A stretch of DNA of 64,000 nucleotides from Escherichia coli (lineage in GTDB: Bacteria; Pseudomonadota; Gammaproteobacteria; Enterobacterales; Enterobacteriaceae): assembly GCF_003334255.1 (NCBI RefSeq), contig NZ_QOWU01000011.1; one strand, 5' to 3'. The notes under the pieces were generated by a model. The model did no database searches, was not told where the DNA came from, and was given only the letters and a program-made list of their open reading frames with translations. Shown here one piece after another: positions 5,030 to 57,039 of this stretch. A program made the position numbers and the translations under genes. The stretch's first letter is position 1, and each line of letters begins with the position of its first letter.

Positions 5030-5398
5030 AATAAAAAAAGGGAGCACTGTATTCACAGCGCTCCCGGTTCGTTTCGCAGCATTCCAGCTACTTTTGTTGC
5101 TCCCTGCTCATCCTTGACAACTTTTCCTCTGGCCTTGCGGCCAATCGTTCATCCTGAACTATTGCTTCCTGCTCACACCACCCCGATGTGATACTTCATC
5201 CTGAAGTGTCCCTGGCCTTCCTGACCCACCGAATCATCCTGACCGGTTCTCATTCTCCATCCTGGAGGTGTCCTTTAACGCGTCCTGCGTCATCCTCTTC
5301 GCTTCATCCAGAAGCCTTTCCCTGAAACACCATCCTGGTGTGTCCTGCAGAAGTGTCATCATCCTGATGTTCACTTCGTTGTCTGACTCCCTGTCGAC
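5030..5398 (-). ncRNA. csrB: CsrB small RNA (CsrA-sequestering), about 369 nt
   Basis: Plus strand carries about 9 copies of catcctg (reverse complement of CAGGAUG) plus further GGA variants at irregular spacing in 5100-5370; 5' end reads GUCGACAGGGAGUCAGACAACGAAG on the minus strand; ends with hairpin GGGAGCGCUGUGAAUACAGUGCUCCC plus U7 (plus-strand 5030-5066); no ORF. Confidence 0.85.
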
Positions 5399-23559: not shown

Positions 23560-23775
23560 TAGTGGCGGCACTTCCTGAGCCGGAACGAAAAGTTTTATCG
23601 GAATGCGTGTTCTGGTGAACTTTTGGCTTACGGTTGTGATGTTGTGTTGTTGTGTTTGCAATTGGTCTGCGATTCAGACCATGGTAGCAAAGCTACCTTT
23701 TTTCACTTCCTGTACATTTACCCTGTCTGTCCATAGTGATTAATGTAGCACCGCCTAATTGCGGTGCTTTTTTTT
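23560..23775 (+). ncRNA. gcvB: GcvB small RNA (Hfq-dependent regulator of amino-acid/peptide transporters)
   Basis: ACUUCCUGAGCCGGAACGAAAAGUUUUAUCGG..., GU-rich stretch GUUGUGAUGUUGUGUUGUUGUGUUUGCA, internal terminator GUAGCAAAGCUACCUUUUUU and final terminator GCACCGCCUAAUUGCGGUGC plus U8. Confidence 0.85.
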
Positions 23776-26739: not shown

Positions 26740-26919
26740 GAGGTTATCCCTCACCCTAAACGCATAAATGCCTGATGCGCTACGCTTATCAGGCCTACAT
26801 AACTCCTGCAATATTTTGGATTTGCATGATTTGTAGGCCGGATAAGGCGTTCACGCCGCATCCGGCATGAACAACGCGCACTTAGTCAATAATCAGGATG
26901 TGAGGTTACCCCTCACCCT
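26740..26919. repeat. REP pair (BIME-like) flanked by 18 bp direct repeat
   Basis: REP gcctgatgcgctacgcttatcaggcctac (26770-26798) and inverted REP gtaggccggataaggcgttcacgccgcatccggc (26833-26866); flanks gaggttatccctcaccct (26740-26757) and gaggttacccctcaccct (26902-26919). Confidence 0.6.
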
Positions 26920-28260: not shown

Positions 28261-28337
<77 letters not shown>

Positions 28338-46841: not shown

Positions 46842-49088
46842 CTATAACCCTCCGCGAATCAGCCCGCCCATGCCGCGACGCTCCATAAAGGCTGCAACCT
46901 GATGGCGAACTTCGGTCGCCAGTTGCGCTTCCAGACTACGCTGCGCAAGATTTTCTGCTTCGGCATAATCAATGCGCCGCAGCAGGTATTTTGCCCGCGC
47001 TACAGAACGTCCGTTCATAGACAGATGGCGATACCCAAGCCCAATGAGGATTGCCACGCACATGGGATCGCCCGCCATTTCACCGCACAAACGGAGATCG
47101 ATTCCATGTATTTCCGCTTCCCGGGCGATCATCGCCAGAGCTCGTAACATTGCAGGATGAAGACTGTCATAAATGTTCGCCACCCGGGTATTGTTGCGAT
47201 CAACGGCCAGAATGTATTGAGTCAGATCGTTGGTGCCAACAGAGATGAAATCGACCCGCTTTGCCAGATGCGGCAGCATAAATACCATTGACGGCACTTC
47301 CAGCATGATGCCGATACGTGGTTTGGGAATTTCGTAACCGATCATCTCCTCGACTTCACGTCCGGCACGTTCAATCAGGCGGCGTGCTTCATCAACTTCA
47401 TCGAGGCTTGTGACCATCGGCAACAGAATATTCAGGTTGCCCGTAGCGGCATTAGCACGCAGCATCGCCCGCACCTGGATCAAGAAGATCTCCGGCTGAT
47501 CGAGCGTAATGCGAATCCCACGCCAACCCAGGCATGGATTCTCTTCGCTGATCGGCATGTAAGGCAGCTGCTTATCTGCTCCGACATCCAGCGTACGCAA
47601 GGTGACGGGTTTATCATTGAACATTTGCAGCATCCCCTGATACTGCGCCACCTGTTCTTCTTCCGACGGGAAACCACTTTGCAGCATGAATGGGATTTCA
47701 GTGCGATAAAGACCGATGCCATCAATACGGCTGCCCAGTTTTTCTTCATGTTCCGGGCTTAAACCAGCATTGAGCATGACTTTTATACGCTCACCGCTTT
47801 TTAACTGCGCGGGTAAATTGACGTCATCTTCCGCCAGACGGCTAAGCTCAATCTCTTCACTAATTAGCCGCTGATATTCTTGCAGCAGTACCGGCTCCGG
47901 ATCGACCAGCAATTCACCGCGATAGCCATCAACGATCAGCGTCCTACGATGCAGCACCGAAGGCTGAATATCCGCGCCCATCACGGTAGGGATCCCCAGC
48001 GCACGTACCATGATCGCAGCATGGGAGTTGGCTGCGCCATCTCGCACGACAACACCGACTAAGCGATCCTGGGGCAGCTCAGCAAGCGTTGTCGCTGACA
48101 GTTCATCTGCCACCAGAATGAAACGTTCCGGCCAGGCGTTCGGCCCTTGATTAGCGTCATCAAGATGAAACAGCAATCGCTGACCCAGCGCACGTAAATC
48201 GCCAGCCCGCTCTTTGAGATAGTTATCACTTAGCGCGGCAAACTGTTCGGCAAATTTTTCAATGACCGTTTTTACCGCCCACTCTGCCACCGAGCCTTTA
48301 TCAACCTCGGCAAACAATTCGCGACGCAGCCGGGTGTCCGAAAGCAGGTGCGAGTAAAGATCGAAAATAGCCGCCGTTTCTTTTTGTGCACCGGCGGCAA
48401 AGCGTTTGCTGTAGCGGCGAAACTCGTTTGCCGCTTCTTCCAGCGCCCCGGTCAGTCGTTCGCGTTCCAGAGCCGGATCCAGCGTTGATGCCTGATACAC
48501 CTGTTCCATTAAAGGTAACGTGGCATCCTGCCAGCCTTCGGCAATCGCCACACCAGGTGCTGCCGGTAATGCGCGGATTCGCGTCTGGCGATATTGCCCA
48601 AACAAGGCAGTCAACTGCGACTGAGAAAGAATAGCTGCCATCTGGGTGGCAAGCGTCACCAGGAAGGATTCTTCACTTTCGTCATACTGGCGCAACTCTC
48701 GTTGCTGTACCACCAGTACACCAAGCAACTGGCGACGTTGAATAATTGGTACGCCTAAAAACGCGCGGAAACGTTCTTCTTTTACGGAGGGGATGTATTT
48801 GAAGCTGGGGTGCTTTTGCGCATCTGCAAGGTTTATCGGTTCCGCCAGCCTGCCAACCAGGCCGACGATCCCTTCATCAAACGCGAGCGTTACAGTGCGA
48901 CCGCGTGGTTTTTTCAGCCCCCGGGTCGCCATCAGGTAGTAACAACGTCGATCATGATCGGCCAGGTAGACCGAACAGACCTCGGTATCCATCGCAAGAC
49001 AGATGTCGGTAACCAGAATATTTAACGCCTCATTCAGGCGTGGTGCGCTGGCTACCTTTTCGACTATTTCGCGCAGGCGAGTGAGCAT
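46842..49088 (-). CDS. ptsP: Nitrogen-PTS enzyme I (GAF domain + PEP-utilising enzyme I)
   Basis: 748 aa ORF MLTRLREIVEKVASAPRLNEALNILVTDICLAM...; active-site His region GAANSHAAIMVRALGIPTV. Confidence 0.9.
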   Translation of the reverse strand: MLTRLREIVEKVASAPRLNEALNILVTDICLAMDTEVCSVYLADHDRRCYYLMATRGLKKPRGRTVTLAFDEGIVGLVGRLAEPINLADAQKHPSFKYIPSVKEERFRAFLGVPIIQRRQLLGVLVVQQRELRQYDESEESFLVTLATQMAAILSQSQLTALFGQYRQTRIRALPAAPGVAIAEGWQDATLPLMEQVYQASTLDPALERERLTGALEEAANEFRRYSKRFAAGAQKETAAIFDLYSHLLSDTRLRRELFAEVDKGSVAEWAVKTVIEKFAEQFAALSDNYLKERAGDLRALGQRLLFHLDDANQGPNAWPERFILVADELSATTLAELPQDRLVGVVVRDGAANSHAAIMVRALGIPTVMGADIQPSVLHRRTLIVDGYRGELLVDPEPVLLQEYQRLISEEIELSRLAEDDVNLPAQLKSGERIKVMLNAGLSPEHEEKLGSRIDGIGLYRTEIPFMLQSGFPSEEEQVAQYQGMLQMFNDKPVTLRTLDVGADKQLPYMPISEENPCLGWRGIRITLDQPEIFLIQVRAMLRANAATGNLNILLPMVTSLDEVDEARRLIERAGREVEEMIGYEIPKPRIGIMLEVPSMVFMLPHLAKRVDFISVGTNDLTQYILAVDRNNTRVANIYDSLHPAMLRALAMIAREAEIHGIDLRLCGEMAGDPMCVAILIGLGYRHLSMNGRSVARAKYLLRRIDYAEAENLAQRSLEAQLATEVRHQVAAFMERRGMGGLIRGGL

Positions 49089-49100
49089 AATTGGCGTGAC

Positions 49101-49631
49101 TTAACCTCTTTTACGTCGATAAGCAGATGCGTTTTGTGGTTTTGGCGTATTTTCCTGCAGTGACATCACCACACTCGCGAACTCTTTCATTACCCTACGG
49201 TAGACATCACGTTTAAATGACACCACCTGTCTGACCGGATACCAGTAACTTACCCATCGCCAGCCGTCAAACTCTGGTGTACTGCTGGTTTGCATATTGA
49301 TTTCTGCATCGCCGCTCACCAGCTGCAAGAGAAACCATTTTTGTTTTTGGCCGATACAAACCGGCTTCGTGTCCCAACGCACCAAACGTTTCGGTAATTT
49401 GTAGCGCAACCAGTTACGCGTTGAAGCAAGGATTCGAACGTCTTTGCGGCTTAATCCTACTTCTTCAAACAATTCACGGTACATCGCCTGCTCTGCGGAT
49501 TCTCCGGGGTTGATTCCGCCTTGCGGAAATTGCCAGGAGTGCTGACCAAATCGCCGGGCCCACATTACCTGCCCCTGGCGATTACAAATCACGATACCTA
49601 CGTTTGGGCGGTAGCCATCGTCATCAATCAC
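49101..49631 (-). CDS. rppH: RNA pyrophosphohydrolase (Nudix)
   Basis: 176 aa ORF, Nudix box [23 protein letters not shown]. Confidence 0.9.
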
Positions 49632-49779
49632 CGGACTACCTCAAAATAAAGCTTTATATACGAATGATTGTTTCATACTCCAGGAAGACGGTAAACCACT
49701 CTCTGCAGGGCATTACACACTAATAACAATTGAATAACTCACAGTTATGTGCAGAGTTATAAACAGAGGAAGGGGTGGA

Positions 49780-50140
49780 TAGCCGTTTTTATTCACCTTT
49801 TCTGTGGATAGAGTTGTGAAGAACTACGGAATTACTACGGGAAAACCCGGAGCATTCTGAATAAGCCCGATATAGACATTTTAAAATATTCATTATCAGT
49901 CAATGCATTACATGTAATTTTAGTAATGAAAAAGAGTAATTCGTGACCCAGGTCACACCTCTCATTTACGGGTTGGCGAAAGATCAACCAATGCCGTATT
50001 TATCCACAGAATGTGCCACTAAGTTAAGCACTGAACCACTAAAAACTGGAGTTTCGTCGCACGTCAAGGCTGTAAATGGAAACAGTAGTGGAGGTTTTTC
50101 ACAGTTATCCCAGCTTTCTGTGGATAACATGGTGTAAGAT
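49780..50140. promoter_or_regulatory. DnaA-box cluster in the rppH-mutH intergenic region, matching DARS2 (DnaA-reactivating sequence 2)
   Basis: Perfect DnaA boxes TTATCCACA at 50000-50008 (+) and 50119-50127 (reverse strand), one-mismatch box tgtggatag at 49803-49811; DARS2 is described near mutH in E. coli. Confidence 0.55.
49991..50137 (+). CDS. ygdT: Small hypothetical protein (48 aa), doubtful coding status
   Basis: MPYLSTECATKLSTEPLKTGVSSHVKAVNGNSSGGFSQLSQLSVDNMV within ORF 49943..50137; the ORF contains two DnaA boxes, so this may be regulatory DNA rather than a gene. Confidence 0.35.
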   Translation: MPYLSTECATKLSTEPLKTGVSSHVKAVNGNSSGGFSQLSQLSVDNMV

Positions 50141-50315
50141 CCTGTTTATTTTCAGTGACCAGATTTGGAAAACCCGTTGCAGTGTTGCGCAACTCGATTA
50201 CCGGCAACCTAAAAAGCAATATAAATCAGAGAATTGAACAACGCATGTGGAAAAAGTTACACTGCGAATATTCGGCACATAATTGCTGTTTGTTTTTTAA
50301 TCAAGGTATCATGAC

Positions 50316-51005
50316 ATGTCCCAACCTCGCCCACTGCTCTCTCCTCCCGAAACTGAAGAACAGTTGTTAGCGCAAGCACAGCAACTTTCTGGTTATACAT
50401 TGGGAGAACTGGCGGCACTTGTCGGGCTGGTTACGCCAGAGAATTTAAAACGCGATAAAGGCTGGATTGGCGTGTTACTGGAGATCTGGCTAGGTGCCAG
50501 CGCAGGGAGTAAACCTGAGCAAGATTTTGCTGCTCTGGGCGTGGAACTTAAAACTATCCCTGTGGATAGTCTTGGTCGTCCGCTGGAAACAACATTCGTT
50601 TGTGTTGCCCCGTTAACGGGCAATAGCGGGGTGACCTGGGAAACCAGCCACGTGCGCCACAAACTCAAACGCGTACTGTGGATACCGGTTGAAGGCGAGC
50701 GCAGCATCCCGCTGGCGCAGCGTCGCGTTGGATCACCGTTGCTGTGGAGCCCGAATGAAGAGGAAGACCGGCAGCTACGCGAAGACTGGGAAGAATTAAT
50801 GGATATGATTGTTCTCGGTCAGGTTGAGCGGATTACCGCTCGTCACGGGGAGTATTTACAGATACGACCGAAAGCAGCGAATGCGAAAGCGCTTACCGAA
50901 GCCATTGGTGCCCGGGGCGAACGGATTCTGACGCTGCCACGCGGCTTTTATTTGAAGAAGAATTTCACCAGTGCACTACTGGCCCGTCATTTTCTGATCC
51001 AGTAG
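50316..51005 (+). CDS. mutH: Methyl-directed mismatch repair endonuclease MutH
   Basis: 229 aa [40 protein letters not shown]... Confidence 0.95.
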
Positions 51006-56755: not shown

Positions 56756-56843
56756 AAAAAAAACCTGCGCATCCGCGCAGGTTGGTGCAAGAGACAGGGT
56801 ACGAAGAGCGTACCGAATAATCTCACCAATCAATACCTCTGGG
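56756..56843 (-). ncRNA. omrA: OmrA small RNA (Hfq-dependent, OmpR-regulated)
   Basis: Minus strand reads CCCAGAGGUAUUGAUUGGUGAGAUUAUUCGGUACGCUCUUCGUACCCUGUCUCUUGCACCAACCUGCGCGGAUGCGCAGG plus U8. Confidence 0.85.
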
Positions 56844-56957
56844 ATCTTGATTGTGGTCTGCACGACGACTCTTCGCCAGCGAGAAAACGCAAAGGAATGA
56901 AGGGAAATGCAACGAGGTGTGTAAATTGTCGGTTACTGTTACAGATTGATGACCGGC

Positions 56958-57039
56958 AAAAAAAACCTGCGCATCTGCGCAGGCTGGTGTAATTCATGTG
57001 CTCAACCCGAAGTTGACTTCACCTATCAATACCTCTGGG
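56958..57039 (-). ncRNA. omrB: OmrB small RNA (paralog of OmrA)
   Basis: Minus strand reads CCCAGAGGUAUUGAUAGGUGAAGUCAACUUCGGGUUGAGCACAUGAAUUACACCAGCCUGCGCAGAUGCGCAGG plus U8; same 5' end and terminator as OmrA. Confidence 0.85.

Follow-up and report, generated by a model that had tools for sequence, protein, structure and literature searches.

Four systems are known to control whether DnaA carries ATP or ADP, and thereby to time the replication of the Escherichia coli chromosome; DARS2 is one of them. Fujimitsu 2009 is reportedly among the studies on the DARS2 of E. coli K-12. It is this K-12 element (Kasho 2014; Miyoshi 2021; Kasho 2025) that the locus considered here resembles most closely, sharing with it the sequence, the location between rppH (formerly ygpD) and mutH, and all of the named sub-sites; the element itself is unchanged relative to the published one, and what we add is a comparative view of its right half. 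[quoted passage not shown] DARS1, from the bioD–uvrB intergenic region of MG1655, shares this core geometry in the form of box I (+), 5 bp, box II (−), 3 bp and box III (−), laid out as TTATCCACT-ATTCC-TGTGGATAA-CCA-TGTGTATTA. Both elements are upstream of a DNA-repair gene, with the LexA box CTGTTTTTTTATCCAG at uvrB being paralleled by a LexA-type box on the mutH side. DARS1 differs from DARS2 in spanning just 101 bp, in having a perfect box II and in working independently of both IHF and Fis.

Two further systems invite comparison. The datA locus likewise consists of clustered DnaA boxes in non-coding DNA, includes an indispensable IHF site and acts as a cell-cycle-timed switch of the DnaA-bound nucleotide; however, it promotes the hydrolysis of DnaA-ATP, features head-to-tail ATP-DnaA boxes and is Fis-independent. 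The DnaA-oligomerisation region of oriC resembles DARS2 in that perfect boxes seed the cooperative filling of weak neighbouring sites by ATP-DnaA and in that IHF bends the DNA. In contrast to DARS2, it unwinds DNA and loads the helicase, whereas DARS2 is devoid of an unwinding element and has head-to-head ADP-DnaA as its key contact.

The DARS2 element between rppH and mutH

In the window, namely the whole 64-kb stretch of E. coli DNA that was analysed, the gap between rppH (49101-49631, −) and mutH (50316-51005, +) measures 684 bp, and the locus is identical, base for base, to that of E. coli K-12 MG1655 (NC_000913.3) over 3 kb. All 27 published DARS2 primers and oligos have exact matches in this gap, and they delimit the element, its core, boxes IV-VI, IBS1-2, FBS1, FBS2-5 and FBS6. 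Thus, primers MutH-4 and MutH-2 (Kasho 2014), which match exactly at 49766-49784 and 50202-50220, bound an element of 455 bp. The conservation counts given below refer to 79 species of Enterobacteriaceae, with Proteus (Morganellaceae), represented by chromosomes filed within a plasmid collection, as the outgroup. The sites of the element are the following:

49766-50220: full DARS2 element of 455 bp, corresponding to MG1655 2,969,112-2,969,566; experimentally defined and placed by primer mapping
49766-49998: minimal active DARS2 (the "delta-Right" construct), the minimal sequence according to the literature, which has neither perfect DnaA box (V, VI)
49789-49823: DARS2 core, the 35 bp removed in the published delta-Core deletion (primer MutH-14 ends at 49788 and MutH-15 begins at 49824)
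49789-49797, + strand: core DnaA box I, TTATTCACC, one mismatch; head-to-head with box II over a 5-bp spacer; kept in 78/79 species
49803-49811, − strand: core DnaA box II, CTATCCACA, one mismatch; kept in 79/79 species
49815-49823, − strand: core DnaA box III, TTCTTCACA, one mismatch; head-to-tail with box II over a 3-bp spacer; kept in 75/79 species
49856-49864, − strand: DnaA box IV, TTATTCAGA, one mismatch; the nine bases swapped by primers Ksh-30/Ksh-31; reported dispensable
49882-49910: IHF sites IBS1-2, TAAAATATTCATT-ATC-AGTCAATGCATTA; the 29-bp block moved in the traIR/traIL primers
49934-49948: Fis site FBS1, GAGTAATTCGTGACC, within oligo FIS-1U (49926-49956); fits 6/6 specified bases of GnnYAnnnnnTRnnC; reported dispensable
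49978-49998: the "crucial 21-mer" with Fis sites FBS2-3, given by the difference between primers MutH-11 and MutH-17
50000-50008, + strand: DnaA box V, TTATCCACA, perfect; the nine bases swapped by primers Ksh-32/Ksh-33
50119-50127, − strand: DnaA box VI, TTATCCACA, perfect; the nine bases swapped by primers Ksh-34/Ksh-35
50176-50190: Fis site FBS6, GTTGCAGTGTTGCGC; reported dispensable and poorly conserved (mean identity 0.45)

The core, which reads TTATTCACC (+), TTTTC, CTATCCACA (−), AGT, TTCTTCACA (−), is 35 bp long in all 79 species, with 26 of its 35 columns invariant; box IV shows moderate conservation (mean identity 0.70) and not one invariant column. Each 13-mer of IBS1-2 fits 8 of the 9 specified bases of TAAnnnnTTGATW, with the PciI site at 49910 falling, as published, beside IBS. 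The FBS2-5 oligo maps to 49970-50021, and the 21-mer within it contains an invariant GATC, the stretch GAAAGATC being invariant across the 79 species. The binding of proteins to these sites and the need for both IBS1-2 and FBS2-3 in DARS2 activity are known from the literature.

That the DnaA boxes form a real cluster, far above chance, is plain from their distribution. The two perfect TTATCCACA boxes, with 110 bp between them, are the only ones in the 64 kb (shuffled sequences lead one to expect 0.53), and the gap, which makes up 1.07% of the sequence, the fraction used for the binomial expectation, holds four of the window's nine perfect matches to the consensus TTWTNCACA (binomial p = 1.6e-6) and, when up to one mismatch is allowed, 10 of the window's 104 (p = 2e-7). 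Two further perfect-consensus boxes, TTTTTCACA (50095-103) and TTTTCCACA (50246-54), are unconserved beyond Escherichia and Citrobacter and are probably incidental.

The core geometry, the 455-bp sequence with its map position, and the IHF and Fis sites at fixed distances all mark the locus as a DARS, and no evidence contradicting the DARS2 assignment was encountered in the analysis. We hold, with a probability of about 0.96, that the rppH–mutH region is DARS2, a non-coding nucleoprotein scaffold acting through the mechanism described in the literature, and that the overlapping ygdT reading frame is, as argued here, a by-product of its DNA elements. DARS2 and its role at this position are already known and well studied, and the identification changes nothing in the field.

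The original prediction, made from the bare sequence, had noted two perfect opposed boxes about 110 bp apart, a one-mismatch box about 200 bp upstream and an rppH–mutH gap of about 680 bp, and had called the location DARS2-like. These readings hold up, the one-mismatch box being box II, 189 bp before the first perfect box, and the locus turns out to be DARS2 itself, given the MG1655 identity and the 27 exact primers and oligos. The alignment to the core and the search for flanking IHF and Fis sites that it proposed likewise agree with the published element, in boxes I-III and in IBS1-2 and FBS2-3, respectively. It was right that the cluster is real, and one point needs amending: the perfect boxes are V and VI, which are outside the minimal element, and the ADP-releasing core is built around the one-mismatch box II. 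Boxes I, III and IV had gone unnoticed in that scan, which was limited to TTATCCACA-like 9-mers.

The mechanism, as drawn from the literature on the identical sequence (Kasho 2014; Miyoshi 2021; Sugiyama 2019; Kasho 2025), runs as follows. Core boxes I-III are occupied by ADP-DnaA; the protomers on the first two boxes, which are opposed and separated by 5 bp, make a head-to-head contact through their AAA+ domains, and box III contributes a head-to-tail protomer. IHF at IBS1-2 bends the DNA sharply, allowing Fis at FBS2-3 to meet the core complex; ADP is then released and the apo-DnaA takes up ATP, such that ATP-DnaA rises before initiation at oriC. The rising ATP-DnaA in turn nucleates on box V and spreads across three weak boxes (V-a, V-b, V-c), displacing Fis and switching DARS2 off. 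In the identical sequence, direct experiments have tied ADP release, the regeneration of ATP-DnaA and the initiation phenotypes to the core, IBS1-2 and FBS2-3, and box V is described as seeding an ATP-DnaA oligomer that evicts Fis in a negative feedback (Miyoshi 2021). RNA-seq detects very little transcription of DARS2, whose activity is abolished when transcription is forced across it (Frimodt-Moller 2016).

Conservation and candidate sites in the right half

Box V and box VI are both invariant in 79/79 species. Box II and box V are 197 bp apart in every one of them, and 119 bp separate box V from box VI in 77 of the 79, with Proteus showing the same spacing in both cases. The most conserved part of DARS2 is the stretch 50051-50175, which includes box VI, with about 125 bp being near-invariant across genera; the register of this right half is fixed, at 119 bp to box V, 316 bp to core box II and roughly 197 bp to the start codon of mutH. 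The half called dispensable by deletion analysis is thus the one most strictly kept by evolution, with exact spacing even in Morganellaceae. In the literature, the right half is reported to be dispensable in plasmid and in vitro assays, only box V within it has so far been given a function (2021), and box VI has no assigned role and is dispensable on a plasmid. The published DARS2 model leaves this most conserved part unexplained. The conserved block has no second copy elsewhere in E. coli, with a median of one place per genome. A word-indexed search with MutH for distant relatives recovered Enterobacteriaceae only, and the MutH representatives at 53-58% identity come from loci with neither rppH nor a DARS-like triad. 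The following sites were singled out in this region and its surroundings, along with the site facing mutH:

49942-49957: candidate CRP-type palindrome, CGTGACCCAGGTCACA, overlapping FBS1; 9/10 bases of TGTGA-N6-TCACA
50068-50087: candidate LexA-type (SOS) box, GGCTGTAAATGGAAACAGTA, inside the ultra-conserved block 50051-50090
50105-50139: degenerate DARS-core-like triad, TTATCCCAG (+), 5 bp, box VI (−), 3 bp, TCTTACACC (−)
50256-50283, + strand: proximal mutH promoter-like site, GTTACA, 16 bp, CATAAT, by consensus match only

DARS-core geometry occurs at just two sites in the window, one of them being the triad at box VI, whose spacing is kept in 79/79 species and Proteus. This triad is also, unexpectedly, the window's best match to the DARS1 core (28/41 positions, ungapped), which is thus closer to it than to the canonical DARS2 core (24/41). 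The LexA-type box displays CTGT-N8-ACAG, the palindrome of LexA operators, with an A/T-rich centre, as CTGTAAATGGAAACAG at 50070-85, and CTG-N10-CAG is retained in 79/79 species and Proteus. A Salmonella study described the orthologous box as a single LexA site at 228 bp from the ATG of mutH, with a heterology index of 12.99, and a 3.58-fold increase of mutH with nalidixic acid; the end of the box seen here, at 50087, plus 228 gives 50315. The LexA-type box, likewise 228 bp from the start of mutH, is overlapped by no promoter-like site, and scanning both strands, together with inspection by eye, turned up no convincing −10/−35 elements near either this box or box VI. The mutH promoter-like site is the only sigma-70-like match in 49500-50450, and both of its hexamers are promoter-like in other genera.

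The CRP-type palindrome retains GTGA-N6-TCAC in 79/79 Enterobacteriaceae with a variable centre, is within one mismatch of the full motif in 72 of the 79, and was not found in Proteus. A variant of it, TGTGATGATCATCACA, occurs in other genera. We considered a hairpin or terminator at 49942-49957 and rejected it: the arms are conserved, but the inner pair shows combinations of C/A and T/G that are unlike those of a maintained stem. The data agree better with a dimeric protein site than with a hairpin. A matS site, bound by MatP, has a centre of 3 bp, and that identification was rejected on account of the 4-bp centre of this palindrome. No literature linking CRP to DARS2 was found, and none of the three candidates (the triad at box VI, the LexA-type box, the CRP-type palindrome) is described in the DARS2 literature examined.

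From these patterns in the sequence, we tentatively suggest, as a possibility to which we give rather less than even odds, that the right half (~50051-50175) may be a second, ancient module. In it, the DARS1-core-like triad at the invariant box VI, together with a LexA-type operator 49 bp away, could couple the reactivation of DnaA or the transcription of mutH to DNA damage, with the CRP-type site, which is specific to Enterobacteriaceae and placed amid the IHF and Fis sites, perhaps providing a link to carbon status.

The same conservation can be read in other ways. The box cluster might serve mainly as a titration sink for DnaA, or as a set of DnaA operators for mutH and/or rppH, instead of being mainly a nucleotide-exchange element. 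One point in its favour is that the "mutH promoter" had reportedly been isolated among five loci with high affinity for DnaA (Roth and Messer 1998) when DARS2 was yet to be defined; others are the perfect and invariant state of boxes V and VI and the retention of DARS2 with mutH, not with rppH, in Proteus, with box VI at 197-198 bp from the mutH ATG in most species. However, nucleotide exchange and initiation phenotypes have been directly demonstrated for the identical sequence (core, IBS1-2, FBS2-3), and the only mutH promoter-like site is about 130 bp downstream of box VI. We hence deem titration or operator function an unlikely main role; it is compatible with DARS2, and the right half could carry it out alongside nucleotide exchange instead of replacing it. 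A still less probable reading, which we would accept only with great reluctance, is that the conserved block encodes a small RNA or serves as a structured leader, with the boxes being incidental. Near-invariance across genera over about 125 bp is indeed typical of some sRNAs, yet the block has no Rfam match, either at the gathering score or even at E = 1, and neither of its strands folds better than shuffled sequence does (z = -0.25, -0.94), and on these two grounds a structured RNA was rejected. Moreover, no promoter-like site is present in the block, the only terminator-like hits of the gap are outside it (49942-49957, 50273-50288), the former carries the hairpin-breaking C/A combinations, and the reported transcription is very low.

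The ygdT reading frame

The original prediction had also observed that a 48-codon frame, ygdT, spans both perfect boxes and had suggested that it may be an annotation artefact. The frame is there as described, and the suspicion gains support from the test of codon-level conservation that the prediction itself had put forward:

49984-50130, − strand: ygdT (b4610), an annotated 48-codon ORF of MG1655, with its ATG at MG1655 2,969,476

Its ATG coincides with the 3-bp spacer beside box VI and its stop codon is inside FBS2-3. The identity at the first, second and third codon positions is 0.794/0.775/0.826 for ygdT, as against 0.929/0.971/0.634 for rppH and 0.844/0.91/0.45 for mutH; thus, ygdT displays no codon periodicity, with its third positions being the most conserved. 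In six of seven close comparisons its pN/pS is 0.58-1.65 (rppH and mutH, 0.014-0.10), reaching about 1 or above against Salmonella and Citrobacter, where the neighbouring genes show 0.03-0.10, and its pS is 3- to 13-fold below theirs. The seventh comparison, with E. albertii, gave one synonymous and no non-synonymous change, the counts within Escherichia being too small to decide.

An ATG followed by an open frame of at least 47 codons is present in only 21 of the 79 Enterobacteriaceae species, even as the length of the DNA stays constant throughout. The start codon is gone in 18 of the 79 and premature stops occur in 53 of the 79 (at codons 10, 11, 13, 23, 25, 36 or 39), leaving the frame broken or startless in 58; where lost, the start is replaced by CTG, GGG, TAC, GAG or AGG, the last being the state in Proteus. 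E. coli, E. albertii and two other lineages of Escherichia have an intact frame, as do some Salmonella and Citrobacter. With neither purifying selection nor a kept start and open frame across species, we judge that ygdT gives, at the comparative level, no indication of protein-coding selection. Because the box spacings are fixed, the codon-position identities and pN/pS values are unlike those of genes, and the frames are broken, selection would seem to act on the DNA and not on a protein. We infer that the ORF is a by-product of the DARS2 elements, whose sequence and exact spacing, not a protein, are maintained.

The opposite view would be that ygdT is a genuine small-protein gene with the DnaA boxes as its transcriptional or translational controls, the overlap with DARS2 being a case of dual use. 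The ORF is certainly intact in E. coli and the sampled Escherichia lineages, begins with an ATG preceded by a plausible AGGA 9 nt ahead, and is annotated by PGAP (NCBI) in essentially all 5,425 E. coli genomes. Against this, the lack of periodicity, the pN/pS relative to Salmonella and Citrobacter, and the loss of frame or start in most species and Proteus at unchanged DNA length are hard to reconcile with a gene. Furthermore, YgdT matches no family in NCBIfam or Pfam, its relatives amount to only 71 clusters of 36-76 aa, and no promoter-like site was detected upstream of it on the minus strand in the scan. DARS2 is transcribed only at a very low level, and transcription crossing the element harms its function; no literature on a function of YgdT was found, the sole apparent mention being a misprint for YdgT. 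We therefore regard a genuine gene as very improbable, with a young, lineage-specific peptide in E. coli being possible. Under the favoured interpretation of the frame as a by-product of DARS2, a label (b4610/ygdT) that automatic annotation has spread to more than 5,000 E. coli genomes now faces clear comparative evidence against coding selection, and mutating "ygdT" amounts to mutating DARS2.

DARS2 and the DnaA boxes of the rppH–mutH gap

The gap between rppH and mutH measures 684 bp, in DNA identical to that of E. coli K-12 MG1655 (NC_000913.3) across the 3 kb compared (MG1655 coordinate = window coordinate + 2,919,346). The original prediction had read it as a DARS2-like cluster, DARS2 being the DnaA-reactivating sequence 2, and all its factual statements are correct: the non-coding gap of about 680 bp, two perfect DnaA boxes in opposite orientation, a one-mismatch box upstream and a 48-codon frame spanning both perfect boxes are present. 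We mapped the sub-sites by locating in the window the published DARS2 primers and oligonucleotides of the Katayama and Løbner-Olesen laboratories, all of which match exactly; the window also carries ygdQ.

Features of the rppH–mutH locus (window coordinates)
46842-49088, minus strand: ptsP
49101-49631, minus strand: rppH
49766-50220: full DARS2 (455 bp; primers MutH-4 to MutH-2)
49766-49998: minimal active DARS2 ("delta-Right" construct), without both perfect boxes
49789-49823: core (35 bp; delta-Core deletion)
49789-97, plus strand: box I, TTATTCACC
49803-11, minus strand: box II, CTATCCACA, one mismatch
49815-23, minus strand: box III, TTCTTCACA
49856-64, minus strand: box IV, TTATTCAGA
49882-49910: IBS1-2 (IHF sites)
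49934-48: FBS1 (Fis site)
49942-49957: CRP-type palindrome, CGTGACCCAGGTCACA, which overlaps FBS1 and lies between the IHF and Fis sites
49978-98: crucial 21-mer with FBS2-3
49984-50130, minus strand: ygdT (b4610), 48-codon annotated ORF
50000-08, plus strand: box V, first perfect box, TTATCCACA
50068-50087: LexA-type SOS box, GGCTGTAAATGGAAACAGTA (core motif CTGTAAATGGAAACAG at 50070-85)
50119-27, minus strand: box VI, second perfect box, TTATCCACA
50176-90: FBS6 (Fis site)
50316-51005, plus strand: mutH

The reading of the gap as DARS2 is borne out by these exact matches together with the geometry of the core, in which box I (+) is separated by 5 bp from box II (-), and the latter by 3 bp from box III (-). 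The literature likewise describes DARS cores with boxes I and II in opposite orientation across a 5-bp space and a single mismatch in box II of DARS2, and the DARS1 core of MG1655 shares this geometry (TTATCCACT-ATTCC-TGTGGATAA-CCA-TGTGTATTA). Both checks proposed for this reading, comparison with the DARS2 core and a search for flanking IHF and Fis sites, located their targets (the published delta-Core region, and IBS1-2 and FBS2-3, respectively). Thus, the observation is confirmed and its interpretation as an already known element is supported, with one correction: the two perfect boxes are not central to DARS2, both lying outside the minimal active fragment, and the catalytic core is the triad of boxes I-III, which includes the one-mismatch box of the original prediction.

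The two perfect TTATCCACA boxes are the only ones in 64 kb (0.53 expected from shuffles), and the gap, at 1.07% of the sequence, holds four of the window's nine perfect matches to TTWTNCACA (p = 1.6e-6). When up to one mismatch is allowed, the window has 104 matches, 10 of them in the gap (p = 2e-7). Two further perfect TTWTNCACA matches lie beyond the six named boxes, namely TTTTTCACA (50095-50103, plus strand) and TTTTCCACA (50246-50254, minus strand), the latter adjoining the -35 of a mutH promoter-like site; their conservation is limited to Escherichia and Citrobacter.

According to published work on the identical sequence, ADP-DnaA assembles on boxes I-III, where head-to-head contact of the box I and II protomers through DnaA Gln208 leads to ADP release, and box III supports the DnaA oligomer. 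In vitro and in vivo, DARS2 needs IHF at IBS1-2 and Fis at FBS2-3, whose positions matter; IHF binding is stabilised by negative supercoiling, and Fis contacts DnaA. Negative feedback comes from ATP-DnaA, which nucleates at box V, goes on to occupy the weak boxes V-a, V-b and V-c, and dislodges Fis. A plasmid assay found boxes IV-VI, and likewise the right half of the element, "dispensable for initiation stimulation".

Other uses of the gap can be weighed against this. A structured RNA is not supported by an Rfam search or by folding against shuffled sequence; the known RNA genes of the window found by a gathering-threshold Rfam scan (5030-5389, 23570-23775, 26791-26833, 28261-28334 and 56756-57039: CsrB, GcvB, ES036, a tRNA and the OmrA/OmrB pair) all lie elsewhere. 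The conserved blocks contain no promoter-like sites, the only one found being proximal to mutH (50256-83); RNA-seq reports very low transcription of DARS2, and transcription forced through the element abolishes its activity. The data would also fit boxes V and VI acting in titration or as operators, as an addition to the DARS function and not a replacement for it. Earlier work had recovered this locus as a high-affinity DnaA site named "the mutH promoter".

A conserved right half at fixed register

We aligned the gap of the orthologous rppH–mutH locus from 79 Enterobacteriaceae species. Its best-conserved part is the very half published as dispensable (the right half, 50051-50175), where the blocks 50051-50090 and 50104-50175 show a mean identity of 0.91, with 68 of 112 columns invariant; the corresponding mean is 0.595 for minimal DARS2, and a near-neutral baseline of 0.45-0.63 comes from the third codon positions of rppH and mutH. 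None of the 79 species departs from the sequences of boxes V and VI. Distances are rigid as well: 197 bp separate boxes II and V in 79/79 species, although the DNA in between is only about 55% identical; 119 bp separate boxes V and VI in 77/79; and 197 bp lie between box VI and the mutH ATG in 65/79. Boxes II and VI are 316 bp apart, about 30 helical turns. In 78 of the 79 species the gap as a whole measures 678-688 bp. The sole large indel, a GC-rich insertion of ~124 bp in Intestinirhabdus alba (L019 in our set), maps near aligned window position 49710, which is rppH-proximal and outside DARS2.

Centred on box VI is a second core-like triad (50105-50139), comprising TTATCCCAG (+), 5 bp, TTATCCACA (-), 3 bp and TCTTACACC (-), the last termed box III'. 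The DARS-core geometry occurs at two sites only in the 64 kb, the canonical core and this triad; the chance expectation for such a triad is about 0.0015 with the two perfect boxes only and 0.08-0.09 with all 104 near-boxes. It is also the window's best ungapped match to the DARS1 core (28/41, as against 24/41 for the canonical DARS2 core) and the top local alignment between the DARS1 and DARS2 intergenic regions. All 79 Enterobacteriaceae species retain the triad, as does Proteus.

The candidate LexA-type box retains CTG-N10-CAG in 79/79 species and Proteus, and its position coincides exactly with the LexA box given for Salmonella mutH in an SOS study, which reported a 3.58-fold rise of mutH on nalidixic acid and a single LexA box at 228 bp from its ATG (heterology index 12.99); we could not assign a promoter to the box. 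The CRP-type palindrome keeps GTGA-N6-TCAC in 79/79 Enterobacteriaceae with a free centre, reading TGTGATGATCATCACA in some genera and carrying GATC at its centre in many; we found no CRP–DARS2 link in the literature.

In Proteus mirabilis (NZ_OL790812.1; Morganellaceae), core to box V is 197 bp, box V to the box VI triad 119 bp, and from there to the mutH ATG 198 bp. The LexA-type box lies 49 bp before box VI, in the same register as in E. coli, and box III' (TTTTGCACT) is better than that of E. coli; P. mirabilis lacks both the CRP-type site and a start codon for ygdT. As the register is kept although the left neighbour encodes a 386-aa protein and is not rppH, DARS2 travels with mutH; by the same token, the right half is ancient. 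Judging from sequence and conservation, the triad around box VI could form a functional module together with the LexA-type box, the two being held at fixed register. The DARS2 literature found assigns no function to either, and the 2023 Katayama laboratory review does not mention box VI, FBS6, mutH or LexA; this module is the one lead worth passing to a DnaA specialist.

Two GATC (Dam) sites, at 49983-49986 within FBS2-3 and at 50138-50141 within box III', are invariant in the 79 species. The 10-mer GGAAAACCCG is present twice, once just past the core (49841-49850) and once where the conserved right block ends (50167-50176), both copies being well conserved across genera. The plasmid collection includes multi-megabase records of E. 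coli, Klebsiella and Proteus (H21-H29 and the P. mirabilis record, L088; up to 5.4 Mb), which are chromosomes labelled as plasmids.

The ygdT reading frame

The suggestion that ygdT is an annotation artefact is supported by the comparison. The frame is 147 nt long in 77/79 species, the start codon is missing in 18 and premature stops occur in 53, such that an ATG and an open frame coexist in only 21. Codon periodicity is absent: the three codon positions score 0.794/0.775/0.826 for identity to E. coli, highest at the third, as against 0.929/0.971/0.634 for rppH and 0.844/0.91/0.45 for mutH. The proposed codon-level check detects no purifying selection on the amino acids, with pN/pS (Nei-Gojobori) of 0.58-1.65 versus other Escherichia, Salmonella and Citrobacter (neighbouring genes, 0.014-0.10); a seventh comparison, with E. 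albertii, shows one synonymous and no non-synonymous change. "Synonymous" divergence is 3- to 13-fold below that of the neighbouring genes. The constraint here is on DNA, not on protein, a useful annotation correction.

NCBIfam and Pfam hold no family matching YgdT, whose relatives comprise only 71 clusters (36-76 aa) among 5.8 billion, and no functional paper emerged from the literature searched, one apparent mention being a misprint for YdgT. That it encodes a young Escherichia-specific peptide is improbable; ygdT has the appearance of a frame that constraint on the DNA has left open, its start lying inside the 3-bp spacer adjoining box VI, its codons 2-4 coinciding with box VI and its stop falling inside FBS2-3.
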